Virus record (IMG/VR): IMGVR_UViG_3300033148_004867
Location: 1-49,043 of that record
Length of the DNA stretch: 49,043 nucleotides
Origin: a virus
Taxonomy: Duplodnaviria > Caudoviricetes
Direction: 5' to 3' (one strand)
Shown: positions 8,029 to 48,744 of the stretch, piece by piece
How the letters are laid out: each line of letters starts with the position of its first letter
Position numbering within the stretch: the first letter of the stretch is position 1
Position numbers and translations under genes: made by a program
Notes under the pieces: generated by a model
The model's database searches: none
Told to the model about the DNA's origin: nothing
Seen by the model: the letters and a program-made list of their open reading frames with translations, nothing else

Positions 8029-8574
8029 ATGGAATGGCTGGAAAATATTTTAGAAACTCTACGGAACATTTTTCCGAGAACTTTTACTATCTTCCCTGAT
8101 GAAGCAGGTGTGCGGATTACTTTCGGGACAAGAGTAAAATCACTTGGGCCGGGATGGTATGTTTTTTGGCCGCCTATTCAGCATGTTGAAAAATTAAGTG
8201 TCATGCCACAGGCGGTTGATTTACGACCTCAAAGTGTTCATACTTCTGATGGTGTGGATATGGTTATCAGCGGGGCTATTTTGTATCGTATAAGTGATGC
8301 TAAAAAGGCTATCCTTAATGTTTTAGATTATGACCGAAGCCTACAGGTTTTAGCTCTTGGGGTTATTGCTGATTTTTTCATGGGAGAACATGAGATAGAC
8401 TGGAAAATCAATCTTGACAGCCTGCGAAACAGTATATTAACCGGCATACGTGAAGAAGCCGCAGGATTTGGTTTAAAAATAATGAAAGTTTTTATTACCG
8501 ATTTGGGTTGCACTAAAAATTTAAGGGTACTTGGGCGTGCAATAACTTATGAATCAGAATTTGAAGAAGAATGA
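8029..8574 (+). CDS. SPFH/band 7 (stomatin/prohibitin) domain protein
   Basis: EAGVRITFG..LGPG.Y..WP.I, Q.VHTSDG, I.YRI.D, FGLKI..V.ITD. Confidence 0.85.
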   Translation: MEWLENILETLRNIFPRTFTIFPDEAGVRITFGTRVKSLGPGWYVFWPPIQHVEKLSVMPQAVDLRPQSVHTSDGVDMVISGAILYRISDAKKAILNVLDYDRSLQVLALGVIADFFMGEHEIDWKINLDSLRNSILTGIREEAAGFGLKIMKVFITDLGCTKNLRVLGRAITYESEFEEE

Positions 8575-8930
8575 AAGGTGTAATAATGAATAATCACGTA
8601 TTTTCAAACGACAATGCGGGCCATACAGTTCCGGCACACCCCAATGTAGCCGACCCTGTAGCAGCAAGTGGCCAGACTTTGACTAATGCCTCTAAGGATG
8701 CTGATACTGAAGCAACTGTAGTTGCTGGTGCAACTTACGCATTGACAGCACAGGAAGTAGGCGGGTTTTATCTTGGCATTGCTGATGTAGAAACTGCTGC
8801 TAACATTATCTGGGCTTGTCCTGTCCGAGAAACGATTGTAATTACTATTCCAGAAGGAGTTACTACTTTACATTACGCTACCGATACAGCTAATGCTGTT
8901 GGGTATCTTCGGAGGTTATCGACACCATGA
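8571..8930 (+). CDS. Hypothetical Ala/Thr-rich beta protein
   Basis: Overlaps both neighbours by 4 nt; may start at MNNH. Confidence 0.65.
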   Translation: MKGVIMNNHVFSNDNAGHTVPAHPNVADPVAASGQTLTNASKDADTEATVVAGATYALTAQEVGGFYLGIADVETAANIIWACPVRETIVITIPEGVTTLHYATDTANAVGYLRRLSTP

Positions 8931-9694
8931 TAAAAAAGCGTAGTTCAGAATCAAGGTCTTTATTAGTTGTATTGTTGTTATTATTTGCCCTAACAGGACT
9001 TATGGGGCTTCACATGGCAGTATTGCATCCTGCACAACCGCCTGTCCAAATAATTGTAAACCCTCCGGCTGAAGTTTTTCAGCTTGACGCTGTTATAAAA
9101 TCAATAGTAACTATTGAGATTGATGGCTATCATACTGGGTCAGGATTTATAGTTGATGATTCTGGCTTGATAATTACAGCCCGACACGTTGTGGATAGGC
9201 CAGGAAAGTATACAGTCGTATTTGCAGATGGTGCTAAACGCAAAGTTCGGGGTATTAGGATGAGTGAAGTATCCGATTGTGCGGTACTGTCGGTATCACG
9301 CAAGAATATCCAGGCCTTGAAAAGGACTGCTGATATTTATGTAACGCAATCGATTTTTGTTATTGGAACACCGTTTAATACAAAATTTACTAATTATGTT
9401 ACTGCTGGCGTTATTTCAAAAATAGGAGTATATGAAAGTTTTTTCTGCGATACTCCTTTGATAATGGTAGATGCGGATGGTAATCCTGGTAATAGCGGCG
9501 GCCCTGTGTTGAACGCAAAAGGTGAAGTTATAGGTATTCTTATTGGTGGTTTTGGACAAGGAATAGGTATCAATTATGTGGTTTCTTCGATGGATTTTGT
9601 CGATTTGCTCGAAGGTTGGGTGGATGAAGGCGAAAATTGGGACGAACAGTGGGGAGCGTGGTCAGAATATTCAGAATGGGAAGAAGAATTCTAA
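8927..9694 (+). CDS. Membrane-anchored trypsin-like (S1, HtrA-type core) serine protease
   Basis: N-terminal hydrophobic helix; GSGF, TARHVV (His), DCAVL (Asp), GNSGGP (Ser); no PDZ domain. Confidence 0.92.
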   Translation: MIKKRSSESRSLLVVLLLLFALTGLMGLHMAVLHPAQPPVQIIVNPPAEVFQLDAVIKSIVTIEIDGYHTGSGFIVDDSGLIITARHVVDRPGKYTVVFADGAKRKVRGIRMSEVSDCAVLSVSRKNIQALKRTADIYVTQSIFVIGTPFNTKFTNYVTAGVISKIGVYESFFCDTPLIMVDADGNPGNSGGPVLNAKGEVIGILIGGFGQGIGINYVVSSMDFVDLLEGWVDEGENWDEQWGAWSEYSEWEEEF

Positions 9695-41456: not shown

Positions 41457-42641
41457 TTATTTTCTAACCAAGCCTTCAGGCAACTCACCATCAGGGTCAA
41501 CTCCATTATAGCAAATATCAATATAATCACATCTATATGTAGCTTCACATTGACGCTCACAATGATACCAACTCCCTAACTTGAAATGAGACTTAATTGA
41601 AGCTAAGATACCAGATAATTCATTAAAAAATCGGTCAATTTCAGCATCAGTTTTTGGTATCTCCCGACGGACAAAATAATGTTCAGGCCGTTTTGCAATA
41701 TCAACAAGAAGCCTGGCTCCGTACATTTCAGGGGTTTCACAGATTATAAAAGTTCCTTCTTTTGCACCCGGTATGACCTTAGCCTGTACGTTATCTACAT
41801 ATATTTTTTGTTCTTTCCCGTCGATTTTAGTTTCTACTACTTCAAATTTCTGCCCACAATACATACCATCATTGATAAATTGTTTGCTATCTTTTTGAGT
41901 TAATCTTTTAGGAGAAATTTGTGGCTTTCTAAAAACGCTATAAAACAGACTGTTAATAGGTTTGGTAAGCTGTGGCAATTCTCCTTTAGCCTGGAGCATC
42001 CGCATAATATAAAGGTATAAAGTAGTCTGCGTATCAAGACTTAGATGATTCCAATATCTTGAACCGGGGTCAATACTATCAGAAGTAGTTTTATGCTCAA
42101 CGATACCGAGACTCCCACCTAAATCGATTACCTTATCTACAAACCCAGTTACTTTTAAATTATTAATTACCCGACCGTTTTTATCAAAAATTGGGGTATC
42201 AAATTTAAATTCCCGGAGTACAGTATTTAAAGGTTGTCCGGCATAATACCATTGATATGCAGCCGCAGCGTAAAGAAGCCTTACCCGTTCTACAGCCCAT
42301 TTTTCAGGGTCCATTGAAGGTGGCATCCTGGAATAAGCATCATCAATTACTTTAGTTGCAGCAAGCAACGTGTCATAAGGGACCAAGCCAATGCCATCAC
42401 AAATAGGACAGCCAGCTTTAGCGGCTTTACCGTCATCTGTATTAAATACACAAGTACATGCTGTTCCAGGTTTCAGACTCATAATCTCCATTATAGTATG
42501 CCAATTTGTACCTATTCTAAAATGGTCCGGTTCCTCTGCTTTACGGATGCCTTTAATGTATCTTAAGAAATACTGATAAGGACAGGTTTTAAAACAGCTA
42601 ATTGATGATGCAGATAGCTGCCAGGATTTTTGTTTTACCAT
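41457..42641 (-). CDS. PD-(D/E)xK exonuclease (RecB/Cas4-like)
   Basis: LSASSI..F.TCP, G...H, GFVD, EHKTT, Q..LY, C-terminal Cys cluster. Confidence 0.85.
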   Translation of the reverse strand: MVKQKSWQLSASSISCFKTCPYQYFLRYIKGIRKAEEPDHFRIGTNWHTIMEIMSLKPGTACTCVFNTDDGKAAKAGCPICDGIGLVPYDTLLAATKVIDDAYSRMPPSMDPEKWAVERVRLLYAAAAYQWYYAGQPLNTVLREFKFDTPIFDKNGRVINNLKVTGFVDKVIDLGGSLGIVEHKTTSDSIDPGSRYWNHLSLDTQTTLYLYIMRMLQAKGELPQLTKPINSLFYSVFRKPQISPKRLTQKDSKQFINDGMYCGQKFEVVETKIDGKEQKIYVDNVQAKVIPGAKEGTFIICETPEMYGARLLVDIAKRPEHYFVRREIPKTDAEIDRFFNELSGILASIKSHFKLGSWYHCERQCEATYRCDYIDICYNGVDPDGELPEGLVRK

Positions 42642-42643
42642 GA

Positions 42644-42904
42644 TTATTCTCCAATAAAAGTTTTACAGTCTTTACAGCCCCCATACGTAAAGCACTTACC
42701 ACAGTGCCACCTGTCATATTTTTTATGTGGATTCACATATCGATGCCTATATTTATAATGTGCCCAAGAACAGTATAGCCATTTCTTAGGCCAGTCCAGC
42801 CACCACATTTCAGCTACAAGTTGAAACCAATACCAACGGCACAGCCAACGCAGTCTCCAGTCATCTTTTTTCCACTGTTTTATTTTTTTAGACCAATTAC
42901 TCAT
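42644..42904 (-). CDS. Trp-rich, Cys/His-containing small protein
   Basis: AAAGGA RBS; 86 aa. Confidence 0.55.
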   Translation of the reverse strand: MSNWSKKIKQWKKDDWRLRWLCRWYWFQLVAEMWWLDWPKKWLYCSWAHYKYRHRYVNPHKKYDRWHCGKCFTYGGCKDCKTFIGE

Positions 42905-42927
42905 AATTATTTTCCTTTCACAATTAT

Positions 42928-43083
42928 TTAAGGTGCATGGTGGTCAAATGTAGTATCATATTCTTCTCTTTTTGGGCAAAACTTATGCATTGCTGCTATA
43001 ATAGCTCGCCCTGCCTTTTCAGCCTCTTCTTCAGTTTCAAATTCTATGCAGTAATTTTTTGTCTCAGTACGGACAATTTTCAT
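42928..43083 (-). CDS. 51-aa hypothetical protein (MKIVRTETKN...)
   Basis: Translated by hand; TAAGGAG RBS. Confidence 0.6.
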   Translation of the reverse strand: MKIVRTETKNYCIEFETEEEAEKAGRAIIAAMHKFCPKREEYDTTFDHHAP

Positions 43084-43092
43084 TTTAGCTCC

Positions 43093-43959
43093 TTACTTAG
43101 TATAAGTATTACTTATAATACCTTCTGCTGCAAGTGGCAAACCTTCAGCCCATTCAGGCCCAGAGCTAACAATATCTAATACCTTTTGTAAATTTTCCTC
43201 AGCAGAATGGGCCGGTGTTACTGCAATAATCTCGTCATGTACATGTAACACAACCGGCAGGCCTGCTTTTTCAGTTTCGAGTATCCAATGCACTAACAAA
43301 TCACGAGCAATTGCCTGAACTATATTTTCTACCAAGCTCCCACCCCACAAATGGCCATGATAGTATTTTAAATCATTAGTTTCAGCACAGCCACGACTAA
43401 TGGAAGCCTTAGGATAGTATAATACCCGCCCAGAAGGCAGTTGAATATTAACAGTTTTATTTTTATTCCAAAAAGTAAGTAAATCTTCTGAACCTAATAC
43501 AGCATATCGCATCACTTCATGTGGGTATTTTATGACTAATCGGAAACACCTTTCAACAGATTTCCAAAGGGCCGGAATGCGAGAATAAGTCGTCCGGTAT
43601 CCTTTAATTAGCTGCTGTACAAATAGCTGGTCATACTGTCCGCTATCAAATAAAGGACGCAATCCAGGATTTTCAAGGCAACGTTGGTAGAATTTAGCAG
43701 GACCGAGTCCGAAACCTGAACCAAGAATTGTATCCTTTGCGAATCCTCTTCGTATAGAATATAAAGAATAGATTGAAGGCGGGTCAGATTTCTTAGGCTT
43801 GCGTAATCGGGCACCAAATAATTTTGCCCCGAATTCACTATAAATGTCCCGATTCTCAGCAAATGCTTGTATCATATCTTGCTGGCCTGCCAACCAAGCT
43901 AAAATTCTTGCCTCTATTTGGGCTGAATCTACTATTATAAGTTTGGATACATTAGGCAT
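43093..43959 (-). CDS. Family A DNA polymerase, C-terminal half (palm/fingers)
   Basis: Motif A DSAQIEAR, motif B R.FAKDTILGSGFG, LPSGR, ENIVQAIARD, motif C VHDE. Confidence 0.93.
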   Translation of the reverse strand: MPNVSKLIIVDSAQIEARILAWLAGQQDMIQAFAENRDIYSEFGAKLFGARLRKPKKSDPPSIYSLYSIRRGFAKDTILGSGFGLGPAKFYQRCLENPGLRPLFDSGQYDQLFVQQLIKGYRTTYSRIPALWKSVERCFRLVIKYPHEVMRYAVLGSEDLLTFWNKNKTVNIQLPSGRVLYYPKASISRGCAETNDLKYYHGHLWGGSLVENIVQAIARDLLVHWILETEKAGLPVVLHVHDEIIAVTPAHSAEENLQKVLDIVSSGPEWAEGLPLAAEGIISNTYTK

Positions 43960-44515
43960 CTTTGTTATCGTCTAATAAAGCTATATCATTTTTTATTTCA
44001 TTGCCCCACACGTCCCAGCCAGGAACCTTTTCACGGGCAAACAATTCTATACGAGGTAAGTCTCCGACAAGCTGTATTATATTATCACGAATTATATCAG
44101 GTTTACGGGAGTGTTCACGTAAAGGCGAGATAACTAAATTTCGTACAGAAGCATTGATTCGTTTAATCCTGCCTTTTGTAGCAAGCAAACATAACTCTGG
44201 ATTAGAACGGGTCCAATTTCCACCGCCGAAATGATAAGTATTTTTCCGGGTTTTTACCCAGGTAAATGCAACTGTTTTATACTGAAACCCCCATGCCTCA
44301 ATACATTTCAAAGCAAGAGGTATTTCTGAGTTCATAACCCATAAAAATAAGATGCAGTTATCGTCAGCTATTTTATTGATAGGCAGAGCAATAATATCTT
44401 CAGCCTTCATAGTATCATACATACAGTCTTTTGCCTGCTGGCTCAGCCCTTTACGCTTGCGGAAATTAAATTTCCATGGAGGGTCAGCATATATTATCTG
44501 ATATCTTTTAAGCAT
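43952..44515 (-). CDS. MT-A70 family N6-adenine methyltransferase (copy 2)
   Basis: YADPPW, LFLW, WGF.YKT, W.K, HSRKP, ELFAR, GWDVWGNE. Confidence 0.93.
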   Translation of the reverse strand: MLKRYQIIYADPPWKFNFRKRKGLSQQAKDCMYDTMKAEDIIALPINKIADDNCILFLWVMNSEIPLALKCIEAWGFQYKTVAFTWVKTRKNTYHFGGGNWTRSNPELCLLATKGRIKRINASVRNLVISPLREHSRKPDIIRDNIIQLVGDLPRIELFAREKVPGWDVWGNEIKNDIALLDDNKDA

Positions 44516-44531
44516 ACAATCCCTTTAATTT

Positions 44532-45074
44532 TTAAAAAGTTATATCACTTTCTACTTCATTACCCCATACGTCCCAACCGGGAGTTTTTTTACGAGCAAA
44601 TAATTCTATGCGAGGTAAATCTCCAAAAAGCCTAACTATCTCACCCATTATTTGAGGGGGTTTAGCAGAATGCCGACCACGGGGCCACATTTGTATCTGC
44701 TTAACATTTTTAGCCATCCTTTTAGGCCTACCTTTTTTCCCAAACAAACATAATTCTGCATTGCCGTTCACCCAATGCCCCAGCCCCGAATAAATTCCTG
44801 CCCCTTTAGGATTTAATTTAACCCAGTTAAATAAACAAGTAATATATTTAAAACCCCAAGCATCAATTACTTTCAATGCTTCAGGAAGTTTTGGCATTGT
44901 AGCCCATAACGCTAATGCACAATCGTCAGCACAAATTTTTGATACTGGCAAAGCCATAATTTCAGATAAAGGCATCGGGGGATATTTAAACCCACCTAAT
45001 TTAGGGTTGCAACCTTTACGGTCATCATATAGCCAAGGCGGGTCGGCACATATTATATTATATTTTCTAAGCAT
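44532..45074 (-). CDS. MT-A70 family N6-adenine methyltransferase (copy 1)
   Basis: CADPPW, LALW, WGF.Y, W.K, HSAKP, ELFAR, GWDVWGNE. Confidence 0.93.
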   Translation of the reverse strand: MLRKYNIICADPPWLYDDRKGCNPKLGGFKYPPMPLSEIMALPVSKICADDCALALWATMPKLPEALKVIDAWGFKYITCLFNWVKLNPKGAGIYSGLGHWVNGNAELCLFGKKGRPKRMAKNVKQIQMWPRGRHSAKPPQIMGEIVRLFGDLPRIELFARKKTPGWDVWGNEVESDITF

Positions 45075-46224
45075 ACAATAGCTCTCTCATTTTAGTTATC
45101 GATGGATGGGTACCTTGTCCAGCCCGGCCCCTGCCTCCTAAATTTTGGAGACAAATCCCCCCTGAACCCGAAAAACGGCCAGTGTGGCAGCCGAAATATG
45201 AGAGGGGTACGGGTAATTTACCGTTACACACTTTAGCCAGTTCTTTCATAGCCAAAATACGTTTTTGATGAAGCGGCCAAGACTTCACTGCCTGCCGGGC
45301 CTCCATTAAATTACGTACCTCATCTTTAGGATGAGCTAAAAGTAATTTACACCCGTCATCTGTCTTTGCAAGAGCAGGGCCAACGCCGGGCTGTCCGAGC
45401 AAGGCCGTCATTTTTTTACCCGGTCTCTTATGTGGTTTAACAGGCACAGACTCGCCCTTTGGCAGTACTGCCTGTAATGCCTCAACAAATGACAAATTAC
45501 CTGATAATTTTTTTGCCGATAGCCCGGTTTTCTCACAGGCCTCAGTAATATATTTTTGCATATCTTCAACTAACTTATCAGCTAATTCAAAATCGAAATT
45601 TAGCCGTGGCTTAAGATAAAGGTCAATTGTATGCCGAGCAATTTTTAATTCAATCTTTGGGTTAGTTAGATACGGCAGGAGTATTTTAAACAGGGCATAT
45701 TCTAATTCTATGTCATTTATGCAGTAATGATACATTGCTTGTCTTTGTTCGTCCGTCATATCGGCAAGATGCAGACCAAGAAAACTTTTAGTCTCACCTT
45801 TAGCCGGTAGCTTTTCTCGTTTTGCCATATCTTTCAGCTTATGCGACCGGCGGCTGTCAAAATGAGCGTCAAGATGTTTTAAATCAATCATATATTTTGG
45901 GCTGATTTTATAATGTTCCTGAAGGATTAAAGCATCAAACTGGACATTTTGTATCACAACTGTAATGTTTTCAAAGTCAGAGCCATAAGCAGCTTGCATA
46001 GTTACAAAATATTTCTCAAGTAAATCAGCCCATACAAAAAACGCCTCACTGTTATCGTGGGAAAACTTAAACCCACACCCGATTGTTTCAAACCTATCAT
46101 CGGTAACATAGGCCCAAGTACTCATTTTAGAGAGACTATAATCCTTATCAAAATAAGTCTCGAAGTCAAGAATTACAAAATCTGAGGGATAACCAGCCGA
46201 TTGTAAAACCTCAGTAGTAGTCAT
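45067..46224 (-). CDS. Family A DNA polymerase, N-terminal half (3'-5' exonuclease plus thumb)
   Basis: ExoI LDFET, ExoII N..FD, ExoIII YCIND, HTGRFSG..LQNL. Confidence 0.9.
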   Translation of the reverse strand: MTTTEVLQSAGYPSDFVILDFETYFDKDYSLSKMSTWAYVTDDRFETIGCGFKFSHDNSEAFFVWADLLEKYFVTMQAAYGSDFENITVVIQNVQFDALILQEHYKISPKYMIDLKHLDAHFDSRRSHKLKDMAKREKLPAKGETKSFLGLHLADMTDEQRQAMYHYCINDIELEYALFKILLPYLTNPKIELKIARHTIDLYLKPRLNFDFELADKLVEDMQKYITEACEKTGLSAKKLSGNLSFVEALQAVLPKGESVPVKPHKRPGKKMTALLGQPGVGPALAKTDDGCKLLLAHPKDEVRNLMEARQAVKSWPLHQKRILAMKELAKVCNGKLPVPLSYFGCHTGRFSGSGGICLQNLGGRGRAGQGTHPSITKMRELLYA

Positions 46225-46640
46225 TATAGTTCCTCACTTAAATAAAATCCAGTTTTGATGTTCCCTGCAACCTTTTCATGTTCCCACGCTTCAATAATAT
46301 GGTCTAATTCGACTAATAATGACTCAATCCTTTCAGGATGCTCTTTTTCGCATTCCCACCATTTTTGTATCAAATTACGGATAACGGCAAGCAAACAAGG
46401 CACTTTCAGTGGGCGAGTACTTTTTTTACCAGACTTTTGAAATCGGCTAAAAGGCAATCGACCTTCATCTTCAATTTTAGCCGGGTCGATACAATTTTTT
46501 AATTGCAGAATTCTTAATTTGTCTTGTGAAGTACAAGTTACGTTATAGGCCTTCATTAAAGTACGTTCTATCCAGCCATGATAATATCGGCGTAACTGAA
46601 ACAACCTCGGATTGCCAAATGTGAAGCCTTTTTTTGGCAC
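46224..46640 (-). CDS. Hypothetical protein
   Basis: GTG start; 1-nt overlaps on both sides. Confidence 0.6.
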   Translation of the reverse strand: MPKKGFTFGNPRLFQLRRYYHGWIERTLMKAYNVTCTSQDKLRILQLKNCIDPAKIEDEGRLPFSRFQKSGKKSTRPLKVPCLLAVIRNLIQKWWECEKEHPERIESLLVELDHIIEAWEHEKVAGNIKTGFYLSEEL

Positions 46641-46789
46641 TATTTTTTGTCCTTTAATTTTTTCATTTCCTTGTCAAATGTTTTCCGGTCAATCTTACCA
46701 TACGCTAAATCGTGCCGTAAAGCATATTCTTCATACGATACTAAGCAAGGCCTACGTCTATCACCTTTTCCAGCTTCAGATTGACTCAT
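46640..46789 (-). CDS. 49-aa hypothetical protein (MSQSEAGKGDRRRP...)
   Basis: Translated by hand; TAG overlaps the next GTG start. Confidence 0.6.
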   Translation of the reverse strand: MSQSEAGKGDRRRPCLVSYEEYALRHDLAYGKIDRKTFDKEMKKLKDKK

Positions 46790-46806
46790 TTCTCACCCTA
46801 TCGAGC

Positions 46807-47505
46807 TCAGTTTGTAAACCTACTTTTGTGGTACCTCTCTTTTATCCCACAGGGCATGATGAAATGTTGCGGGATGCCATCCAGAACTACAGCAGCAGAC
46901 AGCATTGGCCTTTTTCTGGCATTCCTGCCATAGGCGAAATTGAAAGCATCTACATCAATTAAACAGCCCGTGTCTAATCCAAATGTCCTACGTAGGGGGT
47001 TAGAAATCCATTTTATACCAGAGGCAGAGTGGCAATGTCCCATAACTGTGGACATCAACATATCTTTCATCACATTGAAAGCTGGATTGATGCCAGAACG
47101 TCCAGTGCCATGCCAATAATAAACATCATCAATAATAAAATCATTCGCCCAAGTCCAGCCAGGCGTATTCCATACATCAGAATAATTTCTTAAATACTGA
47201 GGTGGAATATTTACTGATTCGGCCAACCGGATAACTCTGATATCGTGGTTGCCGAGACAAACTTTCATTTTTGGGAAGGCTCGTCGCCATTTTTGAATAG
47301 CCCGTTTTGCAAGATGATATTCATCAAGTGCCCCGGCACACTGAGGGTTGTTTGCGTGAAAACTTATTGCTTGCATATCTACAATATCGCCGATACACAC
47401 TATTTCATTACACTTAAATTTATTACGCAAATCTCGGCAAAACGCCAAAGCTCCGGGGTGGGCTACTGGATTATGCAAATCTGGAATTATAAGCACTTTT
47501 GACAT
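46807..47505 (-). CDS. Calcineurin-like metallophosphoesterase
   Basis: PDLH, GDIVD, GNHD, HG, GHCH. Confidence 0.9.
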   Translation of the reverse strand: MSKVLIIPDLHNPVAHPGALAFCRDLRNKFKCNEIVCIGDIVDMQAISFHANNPQCAGALDEYHLAKRAIQKWRRAFPKMKVCLGNHDIRVIRLAESVNIPPQYLRNYSDVWNTPGWTWANDFIIDDVYYWHGTGRSGINPAFNVMKDMLMSTVMGHCHSASGIKWISNPLRRTFGLDTGCLIDVDAFNFAYGRNARKRPMLSAAVVLDGIPQHFIMPCGIKERYHKSRFTN

Positions 47506-48168: not shown

Positions 48169-48744
48169 TTAGCTATCCTCCTTTAGTAAAGTTAGTTCGT
48201 CAGTAAAAAATGCATAATCATCATTGCCAACTATCACAAGATGTTCATTGCCATCAGGGCCATACTGTTTTTTATATGTTCCTATATTGTTGTTATTTTT
48301 ACAAAGCGTAGCTATGGCAGATGTAGTTTTAACATCATTACGCAATTTGATTTTTACCTTATCCCCAGCCTTAAATTGCTGTACTTTCACTTTTGATGGT
48401 CGCATAGATTTTTTATAATAATGCGGCATGTTATATAAATACCTGTCATCAAATTTTTGATATATTTCTGGGTGGGCCTCAAATGTAATTAAAAAAGCTA
48501 AATTACAAGCCATGTGCCACAAATGGGACTTCCCACTTTCTAAATCATTTTCTTCACCTTTCAACCACGCAGTAAAATGCCGCATGATAGCCCCGATTAT
48601 ACGGCCATATTTTATGCCAGTCCGCCATTCTTGGGCGGCATATTTCTTAGCCCCGAAAGTCAAAATATGGCCTACTGCCTCTATAAATTCGGGTGGTAAT
48701 AAATTTAATTGATTCTTTCCACTATCATGCTTAGTTCCCATCAC
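48169..48744 (-). CDS. dATP/dGTP diphosphohydrolase-like protein (DUF5664) with C-terminal SH3/KOW-like domain
   Basis: KHDSGK..LLP, TFGAKKY...W..G, RH, D.ESG.SHL.H..CN..FL; FKAGDKVKI. Confidence 0.85.
   Translation of the reverse strand: MMGTKHDSGKNQLNLLPPEFIEAVGHILTFGAKKYAAQEWRTGIKYGRIIGAIMRHFTAWLKGEENDLESGKSHLWHMACNLAFLITFEAHPEIYQKFDDRYLYNMPHYYKKSMRPSKVKVQQFKAGDKVKIKLRNDVKTTSAIATLCKNNNNIGTYKKQYGPDGNEHLVIVGNDDYAFFTDELTLLKEDS

Follow-up and report, generated by a model that had tools for sequence, protein, structure and literature searches.

We analyzed a split DNA polymerase gene in the genome of an uncultured phage, 49,043 nucleotides (nt) long (IMG/VR record IMGVR_UViG_3300033148_004867; hereafter the window), a complete 49-kb phage genome record with terminal repeats. 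On its minus strand a family A DNA polymerase (PolA) is encoded by two separate genes, PolN and PolC, between which lie two MT-A70 methyltransferase (MTase) genes, MT1 and MT2. Comparison with related sequences and a structural model indicate that this is probably an intron-less two-gene PolA whose junction is an exchangeable cargo slot. The order PolN, MT1, MT2, PolC, and the positions, overlaps and spacer of these four open reading frames (ORFs), match those of an earlier sequence-based description (the initial annotation):

45067..46224, minus strand: PolN, 385 aa; 3'-5' exonuclease, thumb and N-terminal palm (TGR motif) of a family A polymerase; ends MRELLYA and stop
45067..45074, minus strand: overlap of the PolN stop and MT1 start, 8 nt, ATGCTTAG; the site where PolC starts in no-insert relatives
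44532..45074, minus strand: MT1, 180 aa; MT-A70 family amino-methyltransferase, DPPW intact; missing from a sister-strain contig
44516..44531, minus strand: MT1-MT2 spacer, 16 nt, with a weak Shine-Dalgarno (SD) sequence for MT2; the sole non-coding DNA in the gap
43952..44515, minus strand: MT2, 187 aa; MT-A70 family amino-methyltransferase, DPPW intact
43952..43959, minus strand: overlap of the MT2 stop and PolC start, 8 nt, ATGCCTAA; without an SD sequence
43093..43959, minus strand: PolC, 288 aa, begins MPNVSKLIIVDSAQIEAR; motifs A (DSAQIEAR), B and C (HVHDE)

PolN matched PF01612 (exonuclease, Pfam) and phrog_17 (PHROGs) and contained the motifs ExoI (DFE), ExoII (NVQFD), ExoIII (YCIND) and TGR. 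PolC, the only PolC match in the window, corresponded to DNA_pol_A (PF00476, Pfam); its motif B (RGFAKDTILG) carries Leu at the E. coli 762 position (B3), in keeping with the criterion for SPO2-like/KPP25-like PolA (PMC10201439; published sources are cited here and below from excerpts). The best cultured matches were only 27-33% identical, to KPP25-type and Rhizobium phages for PolN and to streptococcal prophages for PolC. Both inserted genes gave MT-A70 Pfam matches (E 4e-28 and 2e-33), with MT1 and MT2 scoring 99 and 116 bits against PF05063 (cut-off 23.9) over the full model (1-172), DPPW included. A weak SD-like run lies upstream of the MT1 start, within the Arg-Glu codons of PolN. Ahead of PolC the anti-SD duplex energy was +0.3 kcal/mol, compared with -4.6 to -10.9 kcal/mol for 8 of the 9 other window genes tested outside the insert; the exception was the primase (-0.2). 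The ORF, Pfam and anti-SD analyses thus bear out an intact pair of DPPW MT-A70 genes, 8-nt outer overlaps and a PolC that lacks an SD sequence, all as first annotated, and PolC here likely depends on translational coupling to MT2.

When PolN and PolC were aligned separately to intact relatives (67-70% identity), the two halves abutted with no residues lost, which agrees with the initial annotation's placement of the break just before motif A with little or nothing missing. Against the intact protein P0123, PolN ended at residue 384 and PolC residue 3 corresponded to residue 385. The spacing from TGR to the motif A Asp was 48 residues across the break, compared with 46-47 residues in 98 of 108 intact proteins. 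An AlphaFold2 model of P0123 (pLDDT 92.7), that is, of an intact relative and not of the window halves, matched Klenow-type folds (1d8y and others, E 5e-19) and placed the break in a short loop (residues 383-388), predicted to be a surface turn ahead of the motif A strand. The catalytic motifs are distributed between the genes, with TGR on PolN and motifs A-C on PolC, and both chains would have to build the palm and active site together. The PolN and PolC chains likely reassemble into one enzyme.

PolN and PolC are both under purifying selection. Codon differences from a sister strain (run X1) comprised 14 synonymous and 5 non-synonymous changes in PolN and 6 synonymous and 1 non-synonymous in PolC. 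Pairs of split alleles and close relatives with a measurable synonymous rate (dS) gave ratios of non-synonymous to synonymous rates (dN/dS) of ~0.05-0.23 in both halves, and intact-intact pairs were similar. Because dS against the window was saturated for most relatives, dN/dS was taken from closer pairs and from the X1 differences only. Relaxed selection on either half, which the initial annotation had named as a finding that would speak against a working enzyme, was not seen, the synonymous excess being present in both.

The same break was found in relatives with and without cargo. Among the 120 proteins listed as matches in a near-length search (query included), 53 had a start Met at most 14 residues before the motif A Asp, and these 53 were of several distinct N-terminal types. 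PolN terminates at an identical position in the window and in each of its 13 closest relatives. In a set of 106 sequences with PolC identity of at least 40% (105 loci and the window), 80 were continuous, 17 split (including the window), 7 cut by the contig end and 2 unclassed. The 16 split loci other than the window collapse to 14 distinct ones, half of which (7/14) have no insert and half (7/14) carry cargo:

L107, L117, L150: no insert; 8-nt overlap; PolC 68-72% identical
L125: no insert; 11-nt overlap
L127, L146/147: no insert; 1-nt overlap
L028/187: no insert; 4-nt overlap
L116: cargo, N6_N4 MTase
L036: cargo, phrog_757 MTase with a PPC motif
L112: cargo, EndoVII
L038: cargo, HNH and a 58-aa ORF
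L181: cargo, 61-aa ORF
L192: cargo, ~80-aa ORF
L163: 146-nt gap, 1071-1220; Cys-rich small frame broken by two stops

The broken frame in the L163 gap is possibly decayed cargo. A family-specific motif-B scan of IMG/VR returned 69 loci, of which 61 were intact and 1 was open, with the break at this site in 4 and in the thumb in 3; no new cargo was found among them. Intact alleles are the majority, as 61 of these 69 loci attest, and the split is older and wider than the methylases.

We examined the distribution of split and intact alleles in trees without 11 ambiguous rows; L107 (internal stop) and L150 (truncated) fell below the length filter. On a 270-row PolC tree, the 55 split rows need 17 changes, compared with a minimum of 45 and a mean of 50.6 when labels were shuffled. 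In a smaller tree of 45 chosen rows, no fewer than 12 changes are required by the well-supported branches, and a single split clade was rejected (approximately unbiased test, p=2e-55); the shuffle test is uninformative on this tree because its rows were hand-picked. These changes are not polarisable, and recombination can mimic repeated origin. Split and intact alleles can be closely similar: the split allele L107/P0007 is 89% (PolN) and 93% (PolC) identical to the intact P0342. Small indels distinguish the no-insert alleles from intact ones, with no remnant to be seen, and a comparison of codons suggests that one such indel would suffice to expose a stop together with an overlapping start.

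The ends of close PolN proteins carry KMRE(L/I)L in 13/14 cases compared with 0/18 close intact genes, a contrast whose Fisher p is inflated because the rows are related. In L150, L117 and L125 the Arg-Glu pair is encoded as GGGAG just upstream of the PolC start, with anti-SD energies of -6.6 to -7.3. We read the Arg-Glu tail as probable selection for independent initiation of PolC. One locus combines features of both allele types. In L116 (5230-6020), the PolN body and PolC are of an intact-type clade, and the last 14 PolN codons are split-clade-like; they are 86% like split L107 and 58-69% like the intact sisters. L116 PolC starts at a Met that is internal in those sisters. Because the tail is split-like while the body and PolC are intact-type, L116 suggests that its junction and methylase were imported by recombination.

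The two junctions of the window differ in their assembly support. On the PolN/MT1 side, a 99%-identical MT1 protein and an 89%-identical PolN with the same end residues both come from a 6124-nt contig record; they likely sit together on this second record, one contig being deduced from equal size alone. The MT2/PolC junction was not bridged by any independent contig of three runs and was seen in the window assembly only. Of the two junctions given in the initial annotation, the first thus has likely support from a second record and the second was left without an independent contig. The sister strain provided a further arrangement. In a 706-nt contig (run X1), PolN is followed by the first 25 nt of MT1 and then, after a skip of 559 nt, by MT2; the skip equals the exact distance from the MT1 start to the MT2 start and sits at a 7-nt shared stretch, and the contig persists at 95% likeness. 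A strain with a single methylase, in which MT1 was lost or never present, likely exists, and alleles with zero, one and two MT-A70 genes likely occur. The search for the same break with different numbers of MTases, proposed in the initial annotation, was in this way productive, yielding no-insert relatives, the one-MTase sister contig and the two genes of the window.

MT1 and MT2 are 47% identical, and the MT-A70 profile matches MTA1 and METTL3 structures. MT2 relatives at 70-76% identity are stand-alone phage genes in unrelated viral contigs. Tandem pairs with a spacer of ~17 nt (16 nt in the window) and no PolA nearby were observed at L262:3001-4043 and L265:728-1770. An obligate MT1-MT2 heterodimer was considered and is disfavoured, as both proteins have DPPW and one strain is without MT1. 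Because relatives share the break with nothing or with other genes in the gap, the window methylases are most likely recent passengers that form no part of the polymerase. The initial annotation had proposed a cassette that made itself hard to lose, and this fared poorly: besides the sister contig without MT1, a clean deletion between the two short ATGC repeats would remove the cassette without altering either half, giving the coupled arrangement seen in relatives that have no insert, and therefore the cassette would not be locked in. An MT2 stop or frameshift would probably be polar on PolC, so that coupling would protect MT2 only against nonsense or frameshift decay.

Taken together, these data favor a two-chain polymerase with a junction that likely serves as an exchangeable slot for accessory genes, and the initial annotation's proposal of a two-chain enzyme with its C-half coupled to a methylase is supported in outline: no splicing was evident, PolC lacks an SD sequence and coupling to MT2 is likely. 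The split would have arisen by frameshift fission, in which a small indel uncovers a stop codon along with a start codon that overlaps it; the Arg-Glu codon pair in the PolN tail would then supply a ribosome-binding site. One and then two MT-A70 genes may have entered the overlap by short-homology recombination, leaving an ATGC start/stop overlap at each end. MT1 would thereby have acquired the start that PolC used ancestrally, leaving PolC with no SD sequence and to be made by re-initiation after MT2. Judged from their family, the MTases would be ordinary orphan adenine methylases that shield newly replicated phage DNA from host restriction, and all they would gain from the slot is co-expression with the replication operon.

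Several observations weigh against the two-chain, exchangeable-slot interpretation. Only one contig, at depth 3.8, represents the one-MTase strain. For most of the tree's split PolC proteins there is no locus, so that their junctions are putative. Lesions occur in two split relatives: a nonsense codon interrupts PolC of L107, whose 99% twin P0007 has an open frame, and the HTGR motif of P0242 is three residues short. These lesions are errors or decaying alleles; P0242 had no match when used as a query against viral contigs. The L107 PolN end is MRKLL instead of MRELL, an exception to the conserved tail. Finally, MTases of three unrelated families occupy the slot in 3/8 cargo-bearing loci including the window; since they are also enriched over flanking ORFs, the slot may not be neutral.

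The last point bears on whether the slot is selected for DNA methyltransferases. The junction would then be a reversible switch, exchanged between near-identical phages and entered independently by the three families (window, L116 and L036), which makes synthesis of the catalytic chain conditional on methylase translation, ties methylase output to that chain, possibly with binding at the fork, and yields replication-coupled methylation. We consider this improbable. Consistent with it, both outer junctions overlap in all three loci, and MTases make up 2/8 cargo genes (window excluded) compared with ~17-18 motif hits among 1470 flanking ORFs (p=0.004, binomial at 1.2%, to 0.02). The sister strain without MT1 keeps a coupled MTase, and MTases directly flank intact polA too (upstream in L002/L003, downstream in L223). 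Nucleases, however, are enriched in the slot like MTases, and the MTase:nuclease ratio in the flanks (~17:30) is no different from that at the junction (2:2, Fisher p=0.62; 3:2 when the window is counted, p=0.36); read most simply, the slot draws on a mobile accessory pool. Only 1/80 MT2-related viral loci has a PolA-like gene within 3 kb (L223, where the methylase lies downstream of an intact gene), and 6/80 are tandem MT-A70 pairs with no PolA-like gene nearby. No extra N- or C-terminal domain was seen in MT1 or MT2. With 7/14 distinct split loci lacking any insert and 5/14 carrying non-MTase cargo, the replication-coupled methylation module put forward in the initial annotation does not hold as the principal explanation; in all seven cargo-bearing relatives the cargo is unrelated to that of the window. 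An origin in free-standing homing endonucleases, which would create and spread the split and leave no-insert and MTase alleles once the nuclease was lost or replaced, has a better claim but is still unlikely. EndoVII (L112) and HNH (L038) genes occur at the site, L144 and L361 also have EndoVII at a thumb split, split alleles are interspersed with closely related intact ones, and the L116 tail is nearer to split L107 than to its intact sisters; as a means of spreading, homing is compatible with an exchangeable slot. Against it, a nuclease is present in only 2/14 distinct split loci and is absent from the window's gap, and the small indels of the no-insert alleles show no remnant of one.

Restoration of a single polypeptide by RNA splicing, ribosomal frameshifting or bypass has a near-negligible likelihood. 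Group I introns start after a U and end in G, and the gap can be read as doing so; the authors describing the cultured phage MEP401, compared below, left an intron open (PMC10580990). An Rfam scan across window positions 42500-47000 (E up to 5) gave no intron match, only two chance hits, and the gap holds 16 non-coding nt. In no-insert relatives the frames overlap, so that splicing would have no substrate. Depending on the lineage, the C-frame is +1 or -1, with a start codon always at the site and gaps of up to 1.1 kb. A spliced mRNA restoring one ORF, the outcome the initial annotation set against its own proposal, accordingly found no intron or splicing signal in the sequence to support it. 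Two specific candidates were rejected: a group I/II intron, as no catalytic RNA core was detected by Rfam and the gap is almost wholly coding, and a split intein, as both halves match intact polymerase right to their termini, carry no extension and gave no intein Pfam match. It is also very unlikely that the arrangement is a pseudogene or a misassembly. The unbridged MT2/PolC junction and the lesions in L107 and P0242 point that way, but all motifs are intact, both halves show a synonymous excess, the same termini recur across many independent assemblies, near-identical MT1 and PolN are found on another record, and a cultured phage has the same break.

In relatives, polA is a hot spot at which insertions of several kinds occur. 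Another recurrent split of this PolA family lies in the thumb, near PolN residue 235-240, in 12 rows that are each a separate tree change (L005:6690-6800, L008:6689-6740, L144:5146-5593 and L361, reverse-complemented, ~1981-2353; proteins P0030, P0044, P0045, P0053, P0057, P0062, P0065, P0076, P0093 and P0101). The thumb gap holds an EndoVII gene in L144 and L361; L008 has an 8-nt ATGCCTAA overlap and no insert, and the short gap of L005 resembles a decayed nuclease start. In-frame inserts of ~300 aa with intein-like ends occur at the TGR motif (L114:4980-5884, L164:1821-2731; P0128, P0139, P0171, P0191), and PolC is interrupted elsewhere in L026:5148-6001 (HNH-like ORF in the gap), L014:7752-8677 and L019:7554-8419.

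Other window genes encode a primase, a Sak4-like annealing protein, an exonuclease, a terminase and a portal. Accessory genes at 8029-9694 (plus strand), 46807-47505 (minus) and 48169-48744 (minus) include an SPFH/Band 7 protein, a trypsin-like protease, a metallophosphoesterase and a dATP/dGTP diphosphohydrolase-like gene. A scan for promoters (15 sites, 11.5 +/- 3.4 expected) and terminators (1, 4.1 expected) found nothing above chance. A terminator-like hairpin with a T-run, likewise not above chance, lies inside the PolN coding region (45176-45193, minus strand), ~100 nt ahead of the first junction, and the sister strain differs at several positions near it.

The arrangement suggests that a family A polymerase can accommodate a break of its chain within the palm, one that repeatedly arises or is exchanged, with intact and split alleles ~90% identical. 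The pair of P0342 and the L107/P0007-type allele makes two-chain assembly directly testable, and the break offers a natural position at which split or conditionally activated PolA enzymes could be engineered. A further caution is that short virome 'PolA fragments' are often complete genes, and an essential split gene could be a sheltered landing site for methylases and nucleases. If the slot were selected for methylases, methylation would be coupled to replication through synthesis of the catalytic chain.

The initial annotation's premise that phage polA is typically broken up by introns, inteins or homing endonucleases overlooks published intron-less splits. In the cultured OM43 phages MEP401 and MEP402 (Zobellviridae), polA is present as two ORFs with a small ORF between them (PMC10580990). 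Analysis of the MEP401 genome (OP830906) revealed that gp13 (387 aa) ends after TGR and that four residues precede the motif A Asp in gp15 (236 aa), which puts the MEP401 break at the same site as that of the window's PolA. MEP401 differs in belonging to another PolA lineage (relatives HMO-2011-type and ICP2; PMC10580990) and in its cargo, a single 77-aa ORF at junctions without overlaps compared with two MTases and 8-nt overlaps in the window. The excerpt of that paper holds nothing on repeated toggling between split and intact alleles or on MTase cargo (PMC10580990). In the literature searched, which comprised neither subscription papers nor supplements, we found no account of MT-A70 genes between PolA halves, of this PolA family, of the toggling or of the SD signature. 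A split T7-like cyanophage polymerase has been reported with no break site stated in the excerpt (10.1101/325100), and the excerpt of PMC4889955 contains nothing on splits. MT-A70 beta-class amino-methyltransferases (PF05063) carry a DPPW motif and act as homo- or heterodimers (PMC7544214); compared with these enzymes, MT1 and MT2 appear to be small stand-alone phage-type genes, both with DPPW.

In S-SBP1-like T7-like cyanophages, fission between exonuclease and polymerase produced two overlapping genes through a +1 frameshift with a new stop and start, and the complex is predicted to reassemble (Czernecki 2023, PMC10201439). This is likewise a frameshift fission of a family A polymerase with overlapping genes; it separates exonuclease from polymerase, whereas the window split lies within the palm, which is why here both chains would be needed for the active site. 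For the gp43A/gp43B polymerase of Aeromonas phages 25 and 44RR and the Aeh1 nrdA split by mobE, the unspliced halves co-purify and are active, and it has been suggested that a seg endonuclease may have invaded an already split gene (PMC2988022). Those systems concern a family B polymerase and a ribonucleotide reductase, and their cargo is a homing endonuclease, in contrast to the methylases found between PolN and PolC.

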